A DNA stretch of 64,000 bases from Bacillota bacterium (GTDB lineage: Bacteria > Bacillota > Clostridia > Acetivibrionales > JANLFN01), in NCBI GenBank assembly GCA_023421675.1, contig JAEZTC010000001.1, positions 31,388-95,387 of the forward strand. The letters run 5' to 3'. The notes below the pieces were generated by a model. It did no database searches and was not told where the DNA came from. It saw only the letters and a program-made list of their open reading frames with translations. The translations under genes were made by a program, and so were the position numbers. Position 1 is the first letter of the stretch. The number at the start of each line of letters is the position of its first letter. Below, piece by piece: positions 4,782 through 34,834 of this stretch.

Positions 4782-5356
4782 ACTGTCAGATTTCAGAAGA
4801 ATATATGATGCGGTATTTCGACAAGGATATAAATGATATTGAACAAGCTCAGCTAAGGCAGCACCTTAAGTCCTGCAAAACCTGCAGCGAAAGCTTTGAA
4901 AGCCTGTCGAATGTTCTTAAAATGGTTGAAGCAGAAGGTTCTGTTGAACCGCCTGAAGATTTTGAAGCCTGTATTATGAAAAAATTATCGACCAATGATA
5001 CTCTTCATAAAAGACGTGTCGAAAGAATACTTTTTGCAATATACTGGCTTGCTACAGTAGCTTTAGGAATATTAATGTTCGTAGTGATTCTCAATGTAAG
5101 GGAAGAATTGTTAAAATCCCTTCAGCCTACAGCAGACAGTTCCGGTGTAATGACTGTATTATACTTTATAGTACAAAAGTTCTATGGAGCTCTTGATTTG
5201 CTTATAAGCGGTTTTGAAAAGGTAAGATCTGTTTTCTCAAACATGTATATTTATCTTGCAGCTGCTCTAACTGTTGCATATTTGATAACTAAACCAAGCA
5301 TTTTCAAATTAAAAAATAAACAAATTAACAGACGGCAAACTGCTCAGGACAGATAA
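4778..5356 (+). CDS. anti-sigma factor (zinc-binding ZAS-like, single TM)
   Basis: HLKSCKTCSESF (H-x3-C-x2-C) near the N-terminus and a central TM helix (ILFAIYWLATVALGILMFVVIL). Translationally coupled to the ECF sigma gene. Confidence 0.7.
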   Translation: MNCQISEEYMMRYFDKDINDIEQAQLRQHLKSCKTCSESFESLSNVLKMVEAEGSVEPPEDFEACIMKKLSTNDTLHKRRVERILFAIYWLATVALGILMFVVILNVREELLKSLQPTADSSGVMTVLYFIVQKFYGALDLLISGFEKVRSVFSNMYIYLAAALTVAYLITKPSIFKLKNKQINRRQTAQDR

Positions 5357-21395: not shown

Positions 21396-21860
21396 ATGTC
21401 AGGCGAAGGTATTAAAATAGTTGCTCAAAACAAAAAAGCTAGGCACGATTACTTTATTGAAGATACTCTTGAAGCAGGCATAGTGCTTTCAGGTACCGAG
21501 GTCAAGTCTATAAGACAGGGCAAGGTTAATTTGAAGGATAGCTATGCAATGATAGAAGACGGTGAAGTAATCTTAAGCGGTATGCACATAAGTCCTTATG
21601 AGCAGGGCAACATATTTAACAAGGATCCTTTGAGGGACCGCAAGCTGCTGCTTCATAAGTACGAGATAAACAAGCTTATCGGTTACACACAGCAGAAAGG
21701 CCTCACAATAGTTCCTCTACAGCTGTATTTTACACGAGGAAAGGTAAAACTGCAGCTTGGAATAGCTAAAGGTAAAAAGCTCTACGACAAACGCGACGAC
21801 ATAGCGGAAAGAGATGCGAAGCGCAATATAGACAGAATGATGAAGGAACAGAGTAGGTAA
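21396..21860 (+). CDS. smpB: SsrA-binding protein
   Basis: 154 aa. SmpB signature ([30 protein letters not shown]). Immediately upstream of tmRNA. Confidence 0.95.
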
Positions 21861-22341: not shown

Positions 22342-22732
22342 GGGGGCGTATTGGTTTCGACGGGATTGTTGAGACTTGGGTAGCGGGTAGAGGATTCTCG
22401 TTGGCCTCTTAAAAAACGAGAAACTAAAATTAAACGCTAAAAATAATAACAATTATTCATTAGCTTTAGCAGCTTAATACTGCTAACCGTCAGTCCAGGG
22501 TTCCTGCACCTTGGGTAGCTGGCGTCATTAAGTCAGGCCTTCGGCATAGGAAGGTTAAATGCTGGAACTTTTGCAGCGGTAGCCTTGAGCTGTAATCGTA
22601 TTTAAAGGATACTGAAAGTGTAATCCTGCCTGTGGGAGTGCACCGTAGGGAATGTAAAAATGCAGGATACACCCGTAGAAGCTCTTGTGGATATGGTTTC
22701 GGACAGGGGTTCGACACCCCTCGCCTCCACCA
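22342..22732 (+). ncRNA. ssrA: transfer-messenger RNA (tmRNA, 10Sa RNA)
   Basis: 5' GGGGGCGTATTGGTTTCGACGGG and 3' GGACAGGGGTTCGACACCCCTCGCCTCCACCA. Internal tag reading frame GCT AAA AAT AAT AAC AAT TAT TCA TTA GCT TTA GCA GCT TAA gives AKNNNNYSLALAA. Follows smpB. Confidence 0.95.
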
Positions 22733-22741
22733 AAATGAAAA

Positions 22742-22770
22742 GTATCACCATCAGGTGATGCTTTTTTATT
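22742..22770 (+). terminator. rho-independent terminator of ssrA
   Basis: GTATCACC-atca-GGTGATGC stem followed by TTTTTTATTTT. Confidence 0.8.
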
Positions 22771-22806
22771 TTGCATAGAATCGGAAGGGGTGTCGAACCT
22801 AGCGGC
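22763..22806. repeat. left boundary direct repeat (DR-L) of the ssrA-adjacent island
   Basis: TTTTTATTTTGCATAGAATCGGAAGGGGTGTCGAACCTAGCGGC. The 3' 28-mer is identical to 34807-34834. Begins in the terminator T-tract. Confidence 0.8.
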
Positions 22807-23690: not shown

Positions 23691-24032
23691 TCTACCAAGC
23701 AAAACCTCGATAGAAGTATAAGTTGCATACTCCATGGCTTTTGTTATTTGTAATCGCATGATGGGTGTAGGGGACTTCAATCAAATTGGTAAATAAAAAT
23801 ATTATAATTAAAAACTTTTGATATTAGTATATTGAGAAAGTTACCTACCTTATTATGTCAGTAACCATGCTTTATGACATAAGGGTAACTATCGTATAAT
23901 ATTAAATACAGAGATTTTTTCGAAAAGATACAATATTCTTGAAAAACAGGGCGGAAGTTGATAAAAATTGTTATTATATGTATAATTATTGCTAATATTA
24001 CTTTTAACTTATGTGGGGGGAATTATAAAATA

Positions 24033-26876
24033 ATGGATTCCATAGAAATACCTAAACGATTTGAAAAAAAATTAGAGAGTGATCCTGATTATTGTGTTAT
24101 TGTTAAGGAAATAATTCGCAGGTTTTCACCTATTATTAAAGATAATAAATTAGAATTTTTTCCTGAGTACACTGATCATGGGTTCTTACATATAAATAAT
24201 ACTTTACAGCTTGCTGATAGGATAATTCCAGATGAAACATATAATAAATTAAATACTTTAGACATAAGCATGATTATATTATCTGTTTTTTTGCATGACT
24301 TAGGAATGCATATTACATATGAATTTTTTATTGAATTAATTCAAGGAAAGTCTAAAAATTGTATTGATACGAGGGTTGACAATAAAACATGGGATATTTT
24401 ATGGGATGAGTTTTTTGCAGAAGCTAAGCTTTGGAGCGCAAAAAAACGCCAGTCTTTATTTAAGGATGACTTTGAAATTAAGCAACCTCCTATTAAAAGG
24501 GGAGAAGCAACAGAGAATGATAAGAAGTTTATTGGAGAATTTTTGAGGAAATATCACTCAAGACTAGCATACGAAATATGCATTTTTGGATTTCTGCAAG
24601 TTGATGGATCTAGAATGGAGCTTTCTGACAATTTAGACAATAAGCAAAAAGTATTATTAGGACTTATTGCAAGGAGTCATGGCTTAAATTTGTGGGATGT
24701 TTTTCAATACATTGAGAATGAATTTGGAAGGGAACAAATTCGATCACCCAAAAATGTTCATGCAATTTATATTATGGTTGTTTTAAGAATATCAGACTAT
24801 TTTGATATGGATAAAAGTAGGGCTAATACGCCTATTCTGAAATTTAGAAAAATAAATAGTAGTATTTCGGAATTAGAGTGGGAAAAGCATAAGGCAGTTG
24901 ATTATATAGCAATGGAATTTCAAGATGATCCAGAATCAATTTTTGTGTATATTAATGAAATTGCGCAGAGTAAAGTATACTTAGGTATAAATGACTTGTT
25001 GAAAAACATGCAAAGTGAGCTAGATACATGTTGGGCAGTTTTGGGTAAAGTATATGGGGCATATGAGAATTTACAACTTTCTTTTAGGAGAATACATTCA
25101 AATTTGGACAATAAAGATGTGTTCTTAAAGAAAGTAAAATTTGTTCCGGAAAGAATTAAATTTGATTCCAATCCAGATATTTTAAAACTCTTAATACAAC
25201 CTTTATATGGGCATAACCCAGCATATGGAATAAGAGAACTTTTGCAAAATGCTATAGATGCTTGTGTAGAAAAGGAAAAGGTTTATTCTGAAAAGTATAC
25301 ACCTAACATCATAATAACTATTGATCAAGAGTGTTTAACTGTAGAAGATAATGGTATAGGGATGAATAAAGATATATTGATAAATTACTTCCTTGTAGCA
25401 GGAGCTTCATTTAGAAATAGTGATGTATGGAAAAAGACCTATTGTTTAAATGATAAATCTACTATACCAAGAAGTGGAAGATTTGGTGTGGGTGTTTTTG
25501 CTAGTTTTCTTATTGGAAATGAAATTTCAGTTGAAACTTATAGGATGGGTGAAGATATAGGGTATAAATTTGACGCTAATATTGATACAGATCAAATTGA
25601 AGTGATAAAAGTGATTCCTGATGGAAAGAAATCTGGTACCAAAATTAAGATTAAACTAGATAAAATAGTTCTGGAAGAATTGAAAAACCAATTTGAAAAC
25701 AGTACTGATGAAATAAATTGGAGAAATTGGTATTTTGGGGACAACCCAAAACTTATAATAAATGTGCCAGACGGATGGGTGAAGGGGAGGGACAATGATG
25801 AAATAAAGGTTAGTTTATACAATGATAAGCTTGAGTCTTATTGGAAATCAATAAAGCCAGAGGGATATCATAGAGTTGATTGGACGTATAAATCATATAA
25901 TATGCTTATTTGTAATGGGATAATTATTCGAAATGGGTATAGTGCATATAGATTCATGAGATACAGGTTTCCGGAGAGCTTTTTGCAACCTTTAGTTTCA
26001 GTTGTAGACAGTGATGCTAACTTACCTTTAAATCTTGATAGAAATGGCATAAGCAACAATAGGCTTCCTTTCGAAACAGATCTTGTAAAAGACATCTATA
26101 CCGATATTATAGCAAAACTAATAATGTCAAATGATATTACCGAACTAAATGAGGAAAAGTTAATAATAAAAGAAACAAATCTTTTACACCCAGCAATAAG
26201 TCCGAGAGATTATTCGTATCGTGTTTTCGATTCTTCTGATTATCTCTTAACAAAAAAAGGATTTAATTTGTGCCATTACTATAGCTTGGAAAAACTAGAC
26301 GTTAAGCTTATTAATCGAATGTGGGTAAAAAGTGATACTCAACAAATAGATGATAAAGAATTTATCTCTAAGATTGACCATTTGATTGTAACTAAAGGTA
26401 GAATTTCTTCTATACAACAATATAAACAATGCATAGATTTAAATTATGCAATTAATCTTGGGAAGGCATATGATTTATCAAACATTCGGGCCTATATTAA
26501 AAAGGTCGAATTTAATTATATATTTGAAGAAAACAAAAATAGAATGCGTGCTGGATTTGAAAATAATATTGTTATAGAAAGTGAAAGTAACAATTGGTAC
26601 TGTATAACCTATGGAGATGTACCTAGTCCAAAGCTTGATATTGAATATTTGGAAAGGAATAGTAATAATATTAATCTATTTGTAGAATATTATTATAAAC
26701 TTACAACACAAGAGAAACGTCTTCAAGAACAATATTATTATAGATATGATGAAACTACTTTGTTTGAAGAGTTATTGACAAAGTATATGGGGGAAGATAT
26801 TTATATACCATACGATATTGGTACCAGAATGATTAAATATGATAAGCTAGTAAAAGAGATAAATAATGAGGTATAA
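24033..26876 (+). CDS. HD-phosphohydrolase / GHKL (Hsp90-MORC-like HATPase) fusion protein, candidate defence protein
   Basis: N-terminal HD motifs (DHGFLHINN; FLHDLGMH). Central Bergerat ATPase motifs: N-box ELLQNAIDA, G1 VEDNGIGM, G2 GRFGVGVFASF. The reading frame opens at 23958 with an I-rich AT-junk extension. Strikingly AT-rich codon usage. Confidence 0.75.
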   Translation: MDSIEIPKRFEKKLESDPDYCVIVKEIIRRFSPIIKDNKLEFFPEYTDHGFLHINNTLQLADRIIPDETYNKLNTLDISMIILSVFLHDLGMHITYEFFIELIQGKSKNCIDTRVDNKTWDILWDEFFAEAKLWSAKKRQSLFKDDFEIKQPPIKRGEATENDKKFIGEFLRKYHSRLAYEICIFGFLQVDGSRMELSDNLDNKQKVLLGLIARSHGLNLWDVFQYIENEFGREQIRSPKNVHAIYIMVVLRISDYFDMDKSRANTPILKFRKINSSISELEWEKHKAVDYIAMEFQDDPESIFVYINEIAQSKVYLGINDLLKNMQSELDTCWAVLGKVYGAYENLQLSFRRIHSNLDNKDVFLKKVKFVPERIKFDSNPDILKLLIQPLYGHNPAYGIRELLQNAIDACVEKEKVYSEKYTPNIIITIDQECLTVEDNGIGMNKDILINYFLVAGASFRNSDVWKKTYCLNDKSTIPRSGRFGVGVFASFLIGNEISVETYRMGEDIGYKFDANIDTDQIEVIKVIPDGKKSGTKIKIKLDKIVLEELKNQFENSTDEINWRNWYFGDNPKLIINVPDGWVKGRDNDEIKVSLYNDKLESYWKSIKPEGYHRVDWTYKSYNMLICNGIIIRNGYSAYRFMRYRFPESFLQPLVSVVDSDANLPLNLDRNGISNNRLPFETDLVKDIYTDIIAKLIMSNDITELNEEKLIIKETNLLHPAISPRDYSYRVFDSSDYLLTKKGFNLCHYYSLEKLDVKLINRMWVKSDTQQIDDKEFISKIDHLIVTKGRISSIQQYKQCIDLNYAINLGKAYDLSNIRAYIKKVEFNYIFEENKNRMRAGFENNIVIESESNNWYCITYGDVPSPKLDIEYLERNSNNINLFVEYYYKLTTQEKRLQEQYYYRYDETTLFEELLTKYMGEDIYIPYDIGTRMIKYDKLVKEINNEV

Positions 26877-27384: not shown

Positions 27385-28365
27385 TCAGTGTCCGCCTGAT
27401 TGAAGGTTCAACTGCCTGCTAATCCGTTCCTTTACCTGCGATAGAAAATTATCTGGTCCCAAAACTTTTACTACTGGTCCAAAACTTAAAATACGAATCA
27501 GTAGTTCGGTTTCATCTGCGGGGTCAAAGTTGATGCGGCAAGTGTAAGTATCTCGGTCTTTATCATACTCTGTCTGCCGTTCAAAAGATGCAAATTGAAG
27601 CATACAACGTTCTAATGCGTTACGTTCTTTTGAAATTTCTAAAACCACAGGTTCATTGTGGAAAGGTTCTTTATAAAGTGCATCCAAATCAACAAAAATA
27701 TCAAATTGGTTTTCTGATGGCATAACAGATTTTATGCGCCCAAGATTTAATGTAATCCGTTCAAGTTTGTTATGATGACGGTTGAATGCAGCGCACATGA
27801 GCCTGAATTTATCGTCGCGCGCCGAATAGCATATTTTATACGGATGATATTGCCGCTTGGTACGGCCACCCTTACTACTGCCATATTCGATAATCAGGGG
27901 CTGATGTGCTTTGCAAGCACCGAGAATAGCTTTAAATCGGGCAATATACCCGTCATCGTTGTAATCATCACCGTCAAGATGCTTGTCATATATATGAAAG
28001 TCATTCTGTTCATATAGTGGTTCGATATTATTCAGCGATTCATCTAATACCGTTAGTTGGCTGTCATTTAAAAACAATTTTATACGCCGATCATTAAGAA
28101 GTGCTTTTAACCATGATTTTTCAAGAGTAGTTAAAGGCCTCTTTGTTTCACTGTTGAATTTTGTGAAATATTTTTTGTCCCTTTCCGCAAGTAAACTCCA
28201 TTCACTGGAAAAGAGTGAAGGCAGCAGATGAAAAGCTGTATCATAAAAGCCGTATCCGGAAACAAGTTGTTCAATCTCGGATTTAGATAAGCCGTTCTGG
28301 GCTTGCTCCAAAATTTTAGCCACAACAGTGAAATAGCATCCATAAATTTCGGAAAACAATTCCAT
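27385..28365 (-). CDS. WYL-domain protein (downstream gene of a tandem pair)
   Basis: WYL-like core PYKICYSARDDKFRLMCAAFNRHHNKLERITLNLGRIKSV. AGGAGGTG RBS 6 nt before ATG 28365. Start overlaps the upstream stop codon (TGATG). Confidence 0.7.
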   Translation of the reverse strand: MELFSEIYGCYFTVVAKILEQAQNGLSKSEIEQLVSGYGFYDTAFHLLPSLFSSEWSLLAERDKKYFTKFNSETKRPLTTLEKSWLKALLNDRRIKLFLNDSQLTVLDESLNNIEPLYEQNDFHIYDKHLDGDDYNDDGYIARFKAILGACKAHQPLIIEYGSSKGGRTKRQYHPYKICYSARDDKFRLMCAAFNRHHNKLERITLNLGRIKSVMPSENQFDIFVDLDALYKEPFHNEPVVLEISKERNALERCMLQFASFERQTEYDKDRDTYTCRINFDPADETELLIRILSFGPVVKVLGPDNFLSQVKERISRQLNLQSGGH

Positions 28366-29600
28366 CACTGCTCACCTCCTATACTATACATCTCTGCCAT
28401 TTGGTTAATATCACTGTAAAAACGGTTGACAACAAGCTCGTTTGTCCCTTCAAGCGCGAGAATGCGGCCGGTGAATGTCTTAATCCATGGCGACATATCT
28501 GATGAGTCAAACATTTCCTTGGTGTATAGAAAAGTATTTGTGTCAAGATGCGTAAGTACACCGCCCTGACCCTCTCTCAAGATACGATGGATGATATATT
28601 GCTCACGTTTTTCATCAATGTACAGCTTCATGCATATAACTTCCTTACGGTGTTCACCGCCAAAGCTGACTCCCCAGACCTTATCTAGATTAGTACTTAG
28701 CTTTTCTTTGATTTCAGGAGCAAAATCAATTACAACATCAGGCACAACCGATTTAATATAATCCAAACGATAATTGAAAAAGCGGCGTTTTCGTAGCGAA
28801 TACATGCATGCATATCGGCGCCCGGTTGTCGCACTGACAAATATTTTCAGCGGCAATGCATGTGTGGTCGTGGTCTTTCCGCTTCTTTCGCTTTGATTTT
28901 CAAATACTACTGATTGATTTTTGTGAATAGCTGTAAGCAATTCAAGCAAAATACCGTCCTCAAGAGTGTATGCGATATAGTGATGTTTAAACGCAAATAG
29001 GTCATTTTCAGCATTTTCGTTATCCAAAATATAACTGCCAACTTCCCCGATTGGAGCAACTCCCTGAAAAAACTTGATTGCATCTAAGAATTCATGTGTT
29101 ATGTTGATAGTTTGCGGGGCGATACCGTAGAAAAATACTTTCCCTTGTTTTTCACAAGTCATCATGCCGATTCTTACATACTCATTGCACTTTCCACGGA
29201 CTGTCTGAGCATCAAAAGTGACACCACTTTTTTCGCAAATATAATCAGTAAGTGCATCCACGGCCATTTTTCTGCTTCTTAATGCGTCCAGAATATAAAA
29301 ATGCAGCATAATATCATTTGAAGTAAAACTTTTAGACTTCCATGCTGCGAACAATGGATTAACAGGAATTTTAGAACTGTCCACTGATATGAAGGAGGTT
29401 TTACTGCCATCTTTGTAATCCCATTTCATATATTTCTTGAGATAACTCTCACATCGACGTTTTTCATTATCATAGGTTCTGGCGGATTTTTTAGTGAAAT
29501 CATTGCGCGACTTGAAGCCATATACATAGAAATCTCGCATATAGTCTCGGATTTTATCAAATCTTTTTATCAGTTCTGAAAACTCTGCCATGCCCCTCAC
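28365..29600 (-). CDS. WYL-domain protein (upstream gene of a tandem pair)
   Basis: WYL-like core PLKIFVSATTGRRYACMYSLRKRRFFNYRLDYIKSV. Start is uncertain (GTG 29600 or ATG 29591). Divergent from rtcB. Confidence 0.65.
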   Translation of the reverse strand: MRGMAEFSELIKRFDKIRDYMRDFYVYGFKSRNDFTKKSARTYDNEKRRCESYLKKYMKWDYKDGSKTSFISVDSSKIPVNPLFAAWKSKSFTSNDIMLHFYILDALRSRKMAVDALTDYICEKSGVTFDAQTVRGKCNEYVRIGMMTCEKQGKVFFYGIAPQTINITHEFLDAIKFFQGVAPIGEVGSYILDNENAENDLFAFKHHYIAYTLEDGILLELLTAIHKNQSVVFENQSERSGKTTTTHALPLKIFVSATTGRRYACMYSLRKRRFFNYRLDYIKSVVPDVVIDFAPEIKEKLSTNLDKVWGVSFGGEHRKEVICMKLYIDEKREQYIIHRILREGQGGVLTHLDTNTFLYTKEMFDSSDMSPWIKTFTGRILALEGTNELVVNRFYSDINQMAEMYSIGGEQ

Positions 29601-29710
29601 CCAATAATATGATAATAATTATTCCTTAAAAAATCAACTTCGCAAACTTTTTTAAATGAAAGCAAAATAAGTTACTGGTAAAATTTAACCATAGAAAGGA
29701 GATGAATACA

Positions 29711-30943
29711 ATGTTTGTAATTTCAAACGAAAACACAAATGTACCTATTAAAATTTGGCTGTCAGATGAAAACAAAATTGAGGAAAGCTGTCTTGAACAG
29801 GCGTACCACCTCGCTAATCTGCCATTTTTACATAAATGGGTTTCATTAATGCCTGATACACATACGGGCATGGGAATGCCAATTGGTGGTGTAATTGCCA
29901 CAACCGGTGTAATAATTCCGAACGCTGTTGGTGTAGATATCGGATGTGGAATGGCTTTTGTCGGAACAGATATTAAGGTCGCTGAAATTCATGAAGTTAT
30001 GACCGGGAACGGTTCACTTCTTCAGGGCATTGTTGGAGACATCCTTCGCAATGTACCAGTCGGCTTTAATCATCATAAGAATATTCAAAGTTGCACCACT
30101 CTTGATGTTGCACTTGATAATATGGATAAATATGAAGCAAATACCGAGCTTGTAGGGCAAATTGATGCTGGCTATTATCAGATTGGGACACTTGGCGGGG
30201 GTAATCACTTTATTGAGTTACAGGAAGATAATGATGGCAATTTTGGTATAATGATTCACTCCGGCAGCCGTAATTTTGGTAAGCAAGTATGTGACTACTT
30301 CCACAAAGCCGCCCGTGATTTAAATCAAAAATGGTATTCAAAGATTCCTGATGAATGGCGGTTGGCATTTTTACCGGTTGATTCAAGTGAGGGTAAACAA
30401 TACATTAACTGGATGAATTTAGCGCTTGATTTTGCTGCTGAAAACCGTTCTAAAATGATGTATGCAGTACGTTCAATCATCGAAAAATGGATTGGCAAAT
30501 ATACGAATATTAGTTTTAACTATGCTGATGAAATAAACTGCCACCATAATTATGCTGCAATTGAACATCATTACGATAAAAATGTATGGGTTCACCGCAA
30601 AGGGGCGACCAGAGCACGACTTGGTGAAATCGCAGTTATTCCAGGTGCAATGGGTTCCTATAGCTATGTGGTTGAAGGTTTAGGGAATGAAATGAGCTTC
30701 TGCTCGTCTTCACACGGGGCAGGTCGTCAATATTCACGCAAAGTTGCAATGCAGAATTTTTCTACTGAACAGGTCATGGTCGATTTGAAAGAGCAGGGTG
30801 TTATTCTCGGGAAGCAAAACAAAGAAGACGTGGCGGAAGAAAGTCGCTTTGCATATAAGGATATAGATGTTGTAATGGAAAATCAACAGGATTTGGTTAA
30901 GCCAATCAAAAAGTTAAAGACTATAGGTGTGGTCAAAGGTTAG
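29711..30943 (+). CDS. rtcB: RNA-splicing ligase RtcB (3'-phosphate/5'-OH RNA ligase)
   Basis: RtcB motifs PDTHTGMGMPIGGV, NAVGVDIGCGM, GGGNHFIEL and the catalytic His in SSHGAGR. AGGAG RBS 9 nt upstream of ATG 29711. Confidence 0.9.
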   Translation: MFVISNENTNVPIKIWLSDENKIEESCLEQAYHLANLPFLHKWVSLMPDTHTGMGMPIGGVIATTGVIIPNAVGVDIGCGMAFVGTDIKVAEIHEVMTGNGSLLQGIVGDILRNVPVGFNHHKNIQSCTTLDVALDNMDKYEANTELVGQIDAGYYQIGTLGGGNHFIELQEDNDGNFGIMIHSGSRNFGKQVCDYFHKAARDLNQKWYSKIPDEWRLAFLPVDSSEGKQYINWMNLALDFAAENRSKMMYAVRSIIEKWIGKYTNISFNYADEINCHHNYAAIEHHYDKNVWVHRKGATRARLGEIAVIPGAMGSYSYVVEGLGNEMSFCSSSHGAGRQYSRKVAMQNFSTEQVMVDLKEQGVILGKQNKEDVAEESRFAYKDIDVVMENQQDLVKPIKKLKTIGVVKG

Positions 30944-31029
30944 GTTTTAGGGTGTTGCAGCCTTATATACAACTGATTTATTCTATGCTAAGGGATCAAA
31001 ATCCTTTGCGGTGCCGTAGCGACTAGCTT

Positions 31030-31094
31030 CACGGTATGCCGGGTAGATCAGAAAAATGACAGACAGTGTCGGAGGTTCGAATCCTCTACCCGTG
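31030..31094 (+). other. tRNA-like element 1 (T-arm GGAGG-TTCGAAT-CCTCT plus enclosing stem), not a canonical tRNA
   Basis: Perfect T-arm at 31071-31087, flanked by CACGG (31030-34) and CCGTG (31090-94). GGGTAGA (31041-31047) is complementary to TCTACCC (31085-31091). No D-arm or anticodon arm can be drawn. Confidence 0.4.
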
Positions 31095-31096
31095 AA

Positions 31097-31197
31097 AGGG
31101 TTAACTCAGTTGGAAGAGTATGTCTAGTTTTAGACTGAAAAGCTAAAACTCAAATGGTAAGCGAGCAGTCGCCTGAGGTTCAAATCCTCAATCAGGG
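31097..31197 (+). other. tRNA-like element 2 (D-arm-like ACTC-AGTTGGAA-GAGT, T-arm TGAGG-TTCAAAT-CCTCA)
   Basis: D-arm-like hairpin at 31104-31119, GTCTA-gttt-TAGAC hairpin, T-arm at 31174-31190, 3' ATCAGGG. No matching 5' acceptor strand. Confidence 0.4.
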
Positions 31198-31453
31198 AAA
31201 AGACCTTTCAAGTCTATTCACAAATGGTAGAAATCAAAAATGTCCGGCAAGAGATGGACTGGAAACCATATCATCTTTTGCAACGATTAGCCAGCCAGTG
31301 GTGAAAAGGATACCGTTTGTTTCAGGATTGTTCCATAACGTTCAAGTGATGAATGTACACCGGACAATGACGGAAAAACTTCAATTTTTACCCCGCAGGA
31401 AAAGCGTGGACATTTTTGATAGAAACCGAAATTAAAAGGAAAGAGGTAATAAA

Positions 31454-32548
31454 ATGAAGATTGTTATTAATGAAAATGAACGCGGCTTTTTATTTAAGAA
31501 TGGTACATATCGTAAATTGCTATTACCTGGAAAACATCATATTTACAGGTGTTTTGGAGAATCATATGCACGAACTGATGTTGCAAAGCATGTGCAGGTT
31601 GCCAATACGGATATCGCTGTACTGTTAAAAGATAAATTATTTGCAGAAAGCGTTACAAGAATTGATGTTCCTGATGGATTTGTCGCCATACGAATGGAGG
31701 ACAGCAGAATTACAAGCACTCTACAGCCTGGAACATATTGTTTCTGGAACTGCTACCGAACTCAAAGTTTCAAATTAATTGATATTTCAAAGCCCGAGGT
31801 AACCGATTTGACACGCGAACAGTTAATGGCTGTGCCACGCAATATGTACGCAAAAATTGAAATACCGGAAGGTGAGACAGGTTTGCTGTTTTTTGACGGC
31901 AAGCTAGAGCGCAAACTTGAAAGTGGCAGCTATTACTTCTGGAATAGTATGACGAAAATTACATGCCAGAACATTGATATGCGTGCACAGCAGCTTGACA
32001 TTGCTGGTCAGGAGATCCTGACAGCAGATAAAGTGTCGCTGAGGCTTAACTTTGTATGCACCTACAGAATCACTGATGCAGTCAAAATCGTCAGCGATAT
32101 CAGGGACTACAAAGCACAGATTTATACTATGACACAGCTTGCTCTGCGTGAATATGTCGGCAAGTTTCGTTTCGACGAATTGTTGGAGCAAAAGGACTCC
32201 ATCGCCGCTTTTGTTCTGGAACAATTAAGGGCTAAACAGGACGCGTTGTTTGTGGAATTTTTCGATGCTGGTTTGAAGGATATTATTTTGCCTGGAGAAA
32301 TCCGTGACATTATGAACACTGTGTTGATCGCCGAAAAAAATGCACAGGCTAATGTGATTGCTCGCCGCGAGGAGGTTGCATCTACCAGAAGCTTACTGAA
32401 TACTGCTAAGTTGATGGAGGAAAATGCTACACTTTATAAACTGAAAGAGATGGAATATCTTGAAAAAATCTGCGACAGGGTTGGAAACATTTCAGTTGGT
32501 GGAGGAAACTTACTGACCGAACTGCGTGGGATTTTGAGTTCAAAATAA
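31454..32548 (+). CDS. SPFH/band-7 (stomatin-prohibitin-like) domain protein
   Basis: C-terminal half aligns with the SPFH domain (VSLRLNFVCTYRITDAVKIV...AQANVIARREEVASTRSL). RBS is AAAGGAAAGAGG. Confidence 0.7.
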   Translation: MKIVINENERGFLFKNGTYRKLLLPGKHHIYRCFGESYARTDVAKHVQVANTDIAVLLKDKLFAESVTRIDVPDGFVAIRMEDSRITSTLQPGTYCFWNCYRTQSFKLIDISKPEVTDLTREQLMAVPRNMYAKIEIPEGETGLLFFDGKLERKLESGSYYFWNSMTKITCQNIDMRAQQLDIAGQEILTADKVSLRLNFVCTYRITDAVKIVSDIRDYKAQIYTMTQLALREYVGKFRFDELLEQKDSIAAFVLEQLRAKQDALFVEFFDAGLKDIILPGEIRDIMNTVLIAEKNAQANVIARREEVASTRSLLNTAKLMEENATLYKLKEMEYLEKICDRVGNISVGGGNLLTELRGILSSK

Positions 32549-34768: not shown

Positions 34769-34800
34769 GAACAGGGTGAACCTGTTCTCTTTTTATTTTG
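34769..34800 (+). terminator. rho-independent terminator after the TA pair
   Basis: GAACAGG-gtgaa-CCTGTTC stem followed by TCTTTTTATTTT. Confidence 0.8.
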
Positions 34801-34834
34801 TATGGAAATCGGAAGGGGTGTCGAACCTAGCGGC
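34787..34834. repeat. right boundary direct repeat (DR-R) of the island
   Basis: CTCTTTTTATTTTGTATGGAAATCGGAAGGGGTGTCGAACCTAGCGGC. The 28-mer is identical to DR-L. Also begins in a terminator T-tract. Confidence 0.8.

Follow-up and report, generated by a model that had tools for sequence, protein, structure and literature searches.

In a 64,000-nucleotide (nt) stretch of contig JAEZTC010000001.1 from a Bacillota bacterium (hereafter "the window"), the gene rtcB is separated by a 510-nt gap from a gene encoding an SPFH/Band-7 protein, and a sequence-only reading had noticed two tRNA-like elements in this gap. Our analysis indicates that the gap probably encodes a structured non-coding RNA (ncRNA) of a Band-7-associated, tRNA-like class, for which we propose a role as the RNA partner of the SPFH protein. 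Judged from comparison with homologous loci, the tRNA-like elements are the core of a larger predicted RNA of ~430 nt (~30990-31417), in which a circularly permuted tRNA mimic (E1), a second T-loop elbow (E2) and a hairpin resembling an anticodon arm are flanked by 5′ and 3′ domains. The sequence-only reading was thus right about tRNA mimicry but not about the presence of two separate elements, since what we find is one complete, L-shaped permuted mimic, a partial elbow and an anticodon-like hairpin. All features of the RNA described below are on the plus strand.

tRNA-like sequences in the rtcB-SPFH gap

The motif GGTTCRANTCC occurs exactly twice in the window, with both strands counted, and both copies are at this locus. 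Because only 0.12 copies are expected, and none of 100 shuffled sequences contained two, the two tRNA-like pieces are more than a chance occurrence. They are T-arm 1 (GGAGG-UUCGAAU-CCUCU, 31071-31087) and T-arm 2 (UGAGG-UUCAAAU-CCUCA, 31174-31190), and a D-arm (ACUC-AGUUGGAA-GAGU, 31104-31119) lies between them. Directly 3′ of T-arm 2 is the sequence AUCAGGG, for which a complementary 5′ strand before the D-arm is absent. Each string quoted in the sequence-only reading is found exactly where that reading had placed it.

The description of these sequences as tRNA-like, but not a canonical tRNA, proved accurate. As had been expected, ARAGORN makes no tRNA call at the locus or elsewhere in the window, where it predicts only the transfer-messenger RNA (tmRNA), and Rfam at gathering thresholds also reports the tmRNA only, with nothing at the locus. 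In E-value mode, the Rfam tRNA model scores 18.4 bits at 31099-31193, under its gathering score of 29, and the YrlA model scores 27.5 bits at 31063-31123. YrlA's tRNA-like domain, to which the locus had been compared, does match, but at a score far under the YrlA gathering score of 69. Apart from these two families and one chance match, this mode found no other family up to E = 10 over positions 30400-31900.

E1 is a permuted, acceptor-closed tRNA mimic

We assembled a comparative set from a scan with one genome per species, using an alignment of 14 SPFH homologues. The SPFH protein has 7990 homologues, which are annotated as slipin-family proteins of Clostridia, and the scan yielded 80 loci (L001-L080) with 48-77% SPFH identity. 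Most of these are from Clostridia, while Treponema, Fretibacterium and Lentisphaerae contribute one locus each, and 79 of the loci have upstream sequence usable for motif counts. Cultured strains are among the sources: L004 is from Anaerocolumna xylanovorans DSM 12503 and L027 from [Clostridium] symbiosum ATCC 14940.

E1 (31061-31125) was recognised as a unit by reading the homologous sequences, and is matched by a custom covariance model, R1, and by the tRNA-like domain of the Rfam YrlA model. It starts with an anticodon-stem strand, AGACA (31061-31065), and the variable loop GUGUC (31066-31070), continues through T-arm 1, a closed acceptor hairpin (ACCC-GUGAAA-GGGU, 31088-31101), U8 and A9 (31102-31103), the D-arm and A26 (31120), and ends with the second anticodon-stem strand, UGUCU (31121-31125). 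Homologous units have the order of one strand of a 5-bp helix, a variable loop of 4-5 nt (often GUGUC), a T-arm, a hairpin of variable length and sequence, the dinucleotide UA, a D-arm, one purine and the complementary strand of the helix. On this comparative evidence, E1 corresponds to a tRNA in which a loop caps the acceptor stem and the anticodon loop has been opened, which is the topology of YrlA. With its acceptor stem closed and anticodon loop opened in this way, E1 as predicted cannot be aminoacylated.

R1 was built from an 18-sequence seed of homologous modules, whose alignment is 96.9% paired (35-50% in slid controls); 14 of its 18 pairs have compensatory changes. E1 scores 69.0 bits with this model (E = 2.4e-22), and is the sole full match in the 64-kb window. 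The homologous loci contain 98 matches, almost all on the SPFH strand and upstream of the gene. At E<=1e-3, there are matches in the window and in 58 of the 80 loci, and nearly all of them share the strand of SPFH and lie 250-700 nt upstream. The 40 best R1 matches, 22 of which lie outside the seed, are 96.0% paired, compared with 39-47% in slid controls, and 15 of 18 pairs, in a total of 223 cells, have double changes. Compensatory changes are found in all four helices of the E1-type modules. Furthermore, positions that support tertiary structure in tRNAs are conserved in these 40 modules: U8:A14 is found in 38 and A9 in 39, position 26 is a purine in 38, and the Levitt pair is G15:C48 in 31 and A15:U48 in 5, and so covaries.

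Other pairings are possible in this region. The hairpin GUCUA-GUUU-UAGAC (31122-31135) is mutually exclusive with the closing helix of E1, and is the one chosen by a minimum free energy (MFE) fold of the single sequence. However, it has no equivalent in the nearest relative, L001, whereas the E1 closing helix covaries in 40 modules. Thus, this hairpin is probably not the functional pairing, or else is an alternative conformer. Similarly, GGGUAGA (31042-31048) is complementary to UCUACCC (31085-31091), which consists of the 3′ strand of T-arm 1 and the 5′ strand of the acceptor. Comparable pairings with changed bases occur in the closest relatives (GGUGAGG/CCUCGCC in L002 and, with one mismatch, GGCGAGG/CCUCACC in L001), but not in more distant loci. 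The acceptor-like pairing that had been pointed out here is thus present in the sequence, but it competes with a T-arm that is universally conserved, and its counterparts are limited to L001 and L002; it may be an alternative conformer in the clade of the window. The further suggestion that CACGG and CCGUG enclose T-arm 1 does not hold, as CACGG is part of a conserved helix of the 5′ domain, CCGUG is part of the acceptor hairpin, and the pairing is absent in relatives.

A second elbow and an anticodon-like hairpin

E2 (31152-31190), which we also call the T′ unit, consists of AAUGGUAA, a small hairpin and T-arm 2, and was recognized by a script search of the loci and by eye. No acceptor hairpin and D-arm come after T-arm 2. 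Before it are the D-loop-like sequence AAAUGGUAA (31152-31160) and a 4-bp hairpin (GCGA-GCAG-UCGC, 31161-31172). The script found the order of WGGYAA, an abutting 4-bp hairpin and a T-arm in eight loci (the window, L001, L004, L006, L007, L011, L014 and L017), among which the stems of the small hairpin vary (GCAA/UUGC, GAUU/GAUC, UGCC/GGCA, GGUC/GACC, GGUU/GACC and GCUC/GAGC). By eye, the same order can be seen with register shifts in three more loci, and loci of a second architecture (group B) have UGGCAA, a longer hairpin and GGUUCAACUCC. The GG-containing stretch of E2 could be a stemless substitute for a D-loop, serving T-loop 2.

Ten nt past T-arm 2 starts a hairpin that resembles an anticodon arm (AAGAC-CUUUCAA-GUCU(A), 31200-31216). 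Its 7-nt loop (31205-31211) has the equivalents of U33 and A37, and its "anticodon" is UUC. Across the loci, hairpins with 7-nt loops of the form YUNNNRN occur 2.05 times per locus and 0.23 times in shuffles, or ~9 times as often, where T-arms are included in both counts. When T-arms are set aside, the "anticodons" of the 7-nt loops are GUC (13 cases), GUA (6), GUU (4), GUG (2), UUU (3), UUC (3) and GAU (3). Anticodon-like loops in the upstream regions of L001-L080, whose consensus is CUNNNAA, have an excess of GUN triplets, together with UUU and UUC. GUN triplets are the anticodons of the queuosine family.

The 5′ and 3′ domains

The 5′ domain begins with the hairpin P1 (AAGGGAU-CAAA-AUCCUUU, 30990-31007), which is followed by a core (31008-31042) that consists of GCGGUGCC, an inner hairpin and GGUAUGCCGG and was identified from aligned relatives. 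Relatives have a hairpin of differing sequence at the same place before GCGGUGCC. As MAFFT misaligns P1, this support is positional and carries no formal score. Within the core, a helix is predicted between GUGCCGU (31011-31017) and ACGGUAU (31031-31037). Across 17 aligned loci, the GGUGCC and GGUAU.CC blocks are invariant, and compensatory changes are found in three of the nine pairs predicted for the inner hairpin. In most loci, the motif pair GGUGC...GUAUGCC is located at about −440/−420 nt from SPFH.

The 3′ domain (31236-31417) is predicted to be a rod, both in MFE folds and by RNAalifold. Its outer helix (AAAAAUGUCC/GGACAUUUUU, 31236-31245/31408-31417) is followed by a side hairpin (31247-31281) and a second helix (GGUGAAAA/UUUUUACC, 31300-31307/31385-31392) that flanks the internal loop GGAUACCG/CUUCAA (31308-31315/31379-31384). 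Beyond these are an inner helix, a CCAUAA/ACCGG loop and a terminal hairpin (31338-31356). Independent MFE folds of 14 loci gave the same rod architecture from helices of differing sequence, and the consensus across loci consists of the outer helix, the side hairpin, a helix that flanks the internal loop GGAUACC/CUYAA, a second internal loop (CCAUR/AACCGG) and the terminal hairpin. A 48-locus MAFFT alignment of this domain was too noisy, so the set was trimmed to 27 loci; in this set, RNAalifold predicts 20 pairs, 19 of which have compensatory changes. In 55 of 79 loci, which include both architectures, GGAUACCG lies ~137 nt ahead of the SPFH start codon, and in the window the RNA ends ~37 nt before that codon.

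The ACGGUAU strand of the 5′ domain (31031-31037) is perfectly complementary to AUACCGU (31310-31316), which overlaps the invariant GGAUACCG. This complementarity suggests a possible long-range contact, or else a competition with the local GUGCCGU/ACGGUAU helix. Both blocks are invariant.

A 93-amino-acid open reading frame (ORF) at 31154-31435 on the plus strand overlaps E2, the anticodon-like hairpin and the rod. The sequence-only reading had considered it probably non-coding, and we agree that it is not a gene: it has no Pfam match, tblastn against the 80 homologous loci gave a best E-value of only 5.9, and it overlaps helices with compensatory changes. Given that the RNA spans ~30990-31417 with covarying helices, the ORF must be regarded as non-coding.

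The RNA is associated with the SPFH gene rather than with rtcB

Across the 80 species-level loci, the RNA is directly upstream of the SPFH gene and co-oriented with it. In 69 of 79 loci, the T-loop motif precedes the SPFH start codon by 240-450 nt (up to ~690 nt where there is an extra spacer), often in 2-4 copies. RtcB homologues are encoded in 54 of the 80 loci and WYL homologues in 57, and the genes are arranged in three patterns. Some loci resemble the window, with a divergent pair of WYL genes, rtcB, a gap of ~500 nt and SPFH. In others, the WYL pair is co-oriented and precedes the gap, SPFH and then an RtcB of another clade (~29% identity). In the third pattern, RtcB is absent. In L003, L008 and L018, housekeeping genes surround the RNA and SPFH (at 5001 in each), and RtcB and WYL are both missing; L008 has cinA-recA upstream and L003 has gltX downstream. 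The smallest unit that is conserved thus consists of the RNA and SPFH. On the evidence of these gene arrangements, the invariant genomic partner of the RNA is the SPFH/Band-7 gene, not rtcB. Searches with blastn of the RNA against plasmids and with tblastn of the SPFH protein against phages gave no useful match.

In some loci, tRNA models give a call or a score above threshold. ARAGORN calls cloverleaves in 7 of 79 homologous upstream regions, with differing anticodons (Thr, Glu, Asp, Asn, Lys and His). Where modules occur in tandem, the Rfam tRNA model reaches 40.3 bits (L007, 4429-4491) and 36.1 bits (L003, 4655-4717), above the gathering score, in matches that extend from the D-arm of a module, over the junction, into the T-arm of the module that follows. 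In loci of the second architecture such as L020 and L045, at about −385 to −305 from the SPFH start, the strand after the T-arm (e.g., CGUACGU) can pair downstream to give a closed acceptor hairpin; alternatively, it can pair with the conserved upstream 5′-domain sequence GUGUAUG, and this is the open cloverleaf that ARAGORN calls. Others, such as L053, L060 and L061, support only the closed acceptor hairpin.

Genomic setting

Upstream of the RNA and co-oriented with it is rtcB, which encodes an RNA 3′-phosphate ligase (29702-30943, plus strand; Pfam RtcB, E = 2.3e-113), and downstream is the SPFH/Band-7 gene, of the slipin family (31454-32548, plus strand; Pfam Band_7, E = 1e-34). Divergent from rtcB are two adjoining genes on the minus strand (27385-29600) that encode WYL-domain proteins of 327 and 411 amino acids (Pfam WYL, E = 1e-4 and 3e-6). 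These are presumed to be the regulators of the operon; a sequence search for relatives of both proteins with solved structures found none. Near the operon, promoter-like sites were found only in the region between the divergent WYL and rtcB genes (29585-29712), and a terminator scan found none through 32000 in the window. Past the SPFH gene are a MerR regulator and then a Gp49/HTH toxin-antitoxin pair.

Further upstream are smpB (21396-21860), the tmRNA gene ssrA (22342-22732, found by ARAGORN and by Rfam at gathering thresholds) and, between the tmRNA and WYL genes, a gene (23958-26876) encoding a protein of 972 amino acids that combines an HD-CE domain (E = 7.6e-43) with a GHKL/HATPase_c_3 domain and looks like an uncharacterised conflict-system protein. 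PADLOC has no match for the latter protein, and within the locus gave only a generic WYL match for one of the regulators, with none for RtcB, SPFH or the second WYL protein; we therefore rejected the idea that the locus is a known anti-phage defence system. Direct repeats of 45 nt, which are 93% identical, are located at 22763-22806 and 34790-34834, and enclose a ~12-kb segment 3′ of the tmRNA gene. This segment contains the HD-CE/HATPase gene, the WYL pair, rtcB, the RNA, SPFH, the MerR gene and the Gp49/HTH pair. Each repeat is preceded by a terminator-like hairpin and has, on the minus strand, 14 nt that are identical to the T-arm of the tmRNA (GGTTCGACACCCCT). The repeats may be the borders of an island at an ssrA hot spot. 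The window ORFs examined did not include an integrase.

The SPFH protein

The SPFH protein has no transmembrane segment and is thus soluble. Three tandem N-terminal beta repeats of ~60 amino acids (internal blastp E-values of 9e-9 and 7e-5) are followed by the SPFH domain and a long C-terminal helix. Its AlphaFold2 model has a mean predicted local distance difference test (pLDDT) score of 81.7. Foldseek aligns this model with stomatin, HflK/C, prohibitin and erlin, where the stomatin and HflK/C alignments cover 220-260 columns, and with chains of the major vault protein over 402-417 columns, which correspond to the whole SPFH protein. Its relatives in fold all build large rings or cages. The predicted architecture is thus like that of the vault protein, and fits a role as a scaffold or cage.

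The vault particle of eukaryotes consists of the major vault protein, vault RNA and the TROVE-domain protein TEP1. It is similar to the present system in that the SPFH protein's predicted architecture of beta repeats, an SPFH-like shoulder and a long helix aligns with the major vault protein over the full length, and a small structured RNA is its obligatory genomic neighbour. On the other hand, the SPFH protein has only three repeats, stomatin and HflK/C score better over the SPFH part, and we regard the resemblance as no more than a lead.

Comparison with known RNAs

RNAs that engage tRNA-binding proteins by imitating the tRNA shape are known from several systems, and the operator of thrS is one such tRNA mimic. 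The window RNA shares a T-arm with a canonical T-loop with the thrS operator, the tRNA-like domain of tmRNA and viral tRNA-like structures. However, tmRNA and the viral structures keep an open acceptor that can be charged, whereas the acceptor of E1 is closed, and the tmRNA that is encoded ~8 kb upstream is unrelated.

A closer counterpart has been predicted. The part of Wang et al. (bioRxiv 10.1101/312249) that summarises Burroughs and Aravind 2016 describes some bacteria in which RtcB is found beside a Band-7 protein and a predicted tRNA-like ncRNA, "b7a-tRNA", said to be "strongly resembling an authentic tRNA"; this part adds that YrlA is occasionally found beside Band-7, and gives no experimental validation. 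In a full-text literature search, we found no later paper with the term b7a-tRNA, and Rfam has no family for it. A paper from 2026 notes that the rtc locus of Pseudomonas aeruginosa contains an SPFH gene, and does not mention an RNA.

The window RNA fits the Band-7-associated tRNA class predicted by Burroughs and Aravind 2016, as it is encoded beside a Band-7/SPFH gene and rtcB. The adjacency to Band-7/SPFH is general (69 of 79 loci by T-loop motif, 58 of 80 by R1 at E<=1e-3), and so is the RtcB-centred neighbourhood, with rtcB directly upstream in the window and RtcB in 54 of 80 loci. With regard to the resemblance to an authentic tRNA, the window copy is permuted and acceptor-closed and is not called by ARAGORN, but all tRNA arms and tertiary positions are present. 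The flanking 5′ and 3′ domains, the tandem modules and the variable anticodon loops may or may not be new relative to the 2016 description.

Alternative explanations

The RNA could be a true Y RNA of the YrlA type, tethering an Rsr/Ro60 protein whose gene is elsewhere in the genome, but this is highly improbable. YrlA (RF02553) is the best Rfam match, and the two RNAs are permuted in the same way, with a variable loop, a T-arm, an acceptor closed by a loop, U8-A9 and a D-arm in this order and with flanks that pair into an anticodon-like stem. They also share the conserved tertiary positions, including the covarying 15:48 Levitt pair, and a location inside an RtcB RNA-repair operon; YrlA is known from rsr-yrlBA-rtcBA in Salmonella and from many other bacteria. 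However, the match is confined to positions 23-85 of the 114 in the model, while positions 1-22 and 90-114, which form the Rsr-binding stem, are unmatched here and in five homologous matches. There is also no GNCGAAN0-1G Rsr-binding motif in 30944-31453; in YrlA this motif is near the 5′ end, in a stem made by the two ends of the RNA. TROVE domains are absent from the neighbours (WYL, RtcB, SPFH and MerR) and from 10 of the 11 ORFs in the window that reach ~430 amino acids, whereas YrlA genes are within 4 kb of rsr and on the same strand. In addition, the mimic here is embedded in a far larger RNA that has conserved 5′ and 3′ domains of its own, the E2 elbow and the hairpin resembling an anticodon arm, and the partner gene is SPFH/Band-7. 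Together with YrlA scores of only 27.5 bits in the window and 29-39 bits in homologous loci, these differences led us to reject membership in the YrlA family. Thus, the proposal of the sequence-only reading of a YrlA-type tRNA mimic belonging to the RtcB module is borne out as to fold and mimicry, but not as to family membership or rtcB as the partner. A genuine but unusual tRNA gene or pseudogene, such as a class-II-like tRNA with a long variable arm at 31099-31193, is extremely improbable. The weak tRNA match at these positions uses the D-arm and T-arm 2, and the ARAGORN cloverleaves in 7 of 79 regions and the matches above gathering over tandem-module junctions in L007 and L003 point in the same direction. 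Yet ARAGORN makes no call in the window, the tRNA score is under gathering, AUCAGGG after T-arm 2 lacks a 5′ partner, the closed acceptor hairpin of E1 leaves no 3′ end to charge, and it is the permuted pairing that is conserved. Moreover, the seven calls have differing anticodons (six kinds), unlike what would be expected of orthologues of a decoding tRNA, and we rejected a canonical or decoding tRNA on these grounds. The sequence-only reading had also considered that the T-arms are 3′ ends of tRNAs, left at attachment sites by earlier island integrations; to this reading, on which the T-arms would have no function, we assign next to no probability. The locus is indeed ~8 kb downstream of ssrA, a classic integration hot spot, and the enclosing 12-kb segment is flanked by the 45-nt direct repeats with the 14-mer resembling the tmRNA T-arm. 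But these repeats are at 22.8 and 34.8 kb, not at the RNA locus, the window has no tRNA genes as parents according to ARAGORN, and a closed hairpin and then a D-arm after T-arm 1 is a permuted order that no integration leaves. Dozens of distant genomes, belonging to several phyla, have the whole arrangement at an equivalent place with respect to SPFH; all four helices show compensatory changes, the Levitt pair covaries, and the 48-77% SPFH identity argues against recent horizontal copies of one island. We therefore rejected this reading.

The main rival is that the RNA is a cis-acting 5′ leader of the SPFH mRNA that controls its translation or stability, for example by binding SPFH protein in autoregulation or by binding a tRNA-binding factor; we consider this rather unlikely. 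The RNA is always immediately upstream of the SPFH ORF and co-oriented with it, the 3′-domain motif is at a near-fixed distance of ~137 nt from the start codon in most loci, and the RNA-SPFH pair persists without RtcB. There is also no terminator-like site between the RNA and the ORF in the four loci examined (the window, L007, L031 and L027). On the other hand, the predicted folds have neither a terminator/antiterminator pair nor a pairing that would sequester the ribosome-binding site (RBS), and an unconserved spacer of 100-270 nt before the start codon in L007, L017, L031, L047, L048 and L072 argues against a fixed geometry relative to the RBS. Known leaders need less than a rod of 180 nt and one to four tRNA-like modules in tandem, and the closest analogues, YrlA and YrlB encoded within rsr-yrlBA-rtcBA, are processed from the operon transcript.

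Several points weigh against a separate ncRNA of the Band-7-associated class, or against details of its structure. With no terminator before the SPFH ORF in the four loci just mentioned, the RNA could simply be a 5′ leader. Its 5′ and 3′ ends are placed solely by where conservation stops, and the equation with b7a-tRNA rests on a secondary description (Wang et al.). The R1 seed was chosen by eye with the fold in mind and the alignment of 40 matches is fitted to the model, so the pairing percentages are somewhat inflated; even so, the number and variety of compensatory changes in the aligned E1 sequences are far beyond what such biases produce. The hairpin at 31122-31135 and the GGGUAGA/UCUACCC pairing both compete with the E1 fold. 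For E2, the support comes from the scripted hairpin search, as MAFFT put the hairpins out of register and a formal count of pairs failed.

Proposed role of the RNA

In the role that we propose for a Band-7-associated ncRNA, the divergent promoter, under WYL control, would drive transcription of the RNA together with rtcB and the SPFH gene. By analogy with the pairing of Y RNA and Ro60/Rsr, the RNA would be the partner of a soluble SPFH protein that forms a cage or ring, and the conserved rod with its invariant internal loops might be the platform that binds the protein. The tRNA-like modules would present the shape of a tRNA to factors that recognise tRNAs, which could be RtcB, modification enzymes, or anticodon nucleases whose products RtcB religates. 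The RNA might thereby act as a scaffold, a decoy or a sensor. Colicin E5 and PrrC target anticodons of the biased kind that is seen in the loops. The variability of the loop triplet and its bias to nuclease-targeted anticodons, along with the suggestion of Hughes et al. 2020 (PMC7790460) that YrlA's tRNA-like domain may inhibit an anticodon nuclease, suggest a decoy or sensor role for the anticodon-like loop.

A more far-reaching version is speculative and, taken as a whole, unlikely. In this version, the ~430-nt RNA with its three domains would be of a kind not described before and the obligate partner of a vault-like SPFH cage, and the two would form a bacterial ribonucleoprotein resembling the vault. 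The acceptor-closed mimics and the anticodon-like loop would bait or sense anticodon nucleases, RtcB would carry out repair, and the WYL pair would read the signal.

The RNA also has practical consequences for annotation. The 93-amino-acid ORF is spurious, Rfam has no family for the RNA, and relatives hold sequences that exceed the threshold of the tRNA model; where modules are in tandem, automatic annotation may yield false tRNAs or pseudo-tRNAs. More broadly, RtcB repair operons are widespread, and their ncRNA partners include Y RNAs and the predicted Band-7-associated tRNA. The window provides a clean, well-delimited example of the Band-7 branch of these partners, with a covariance model, 80 comparative loci and a structural map.

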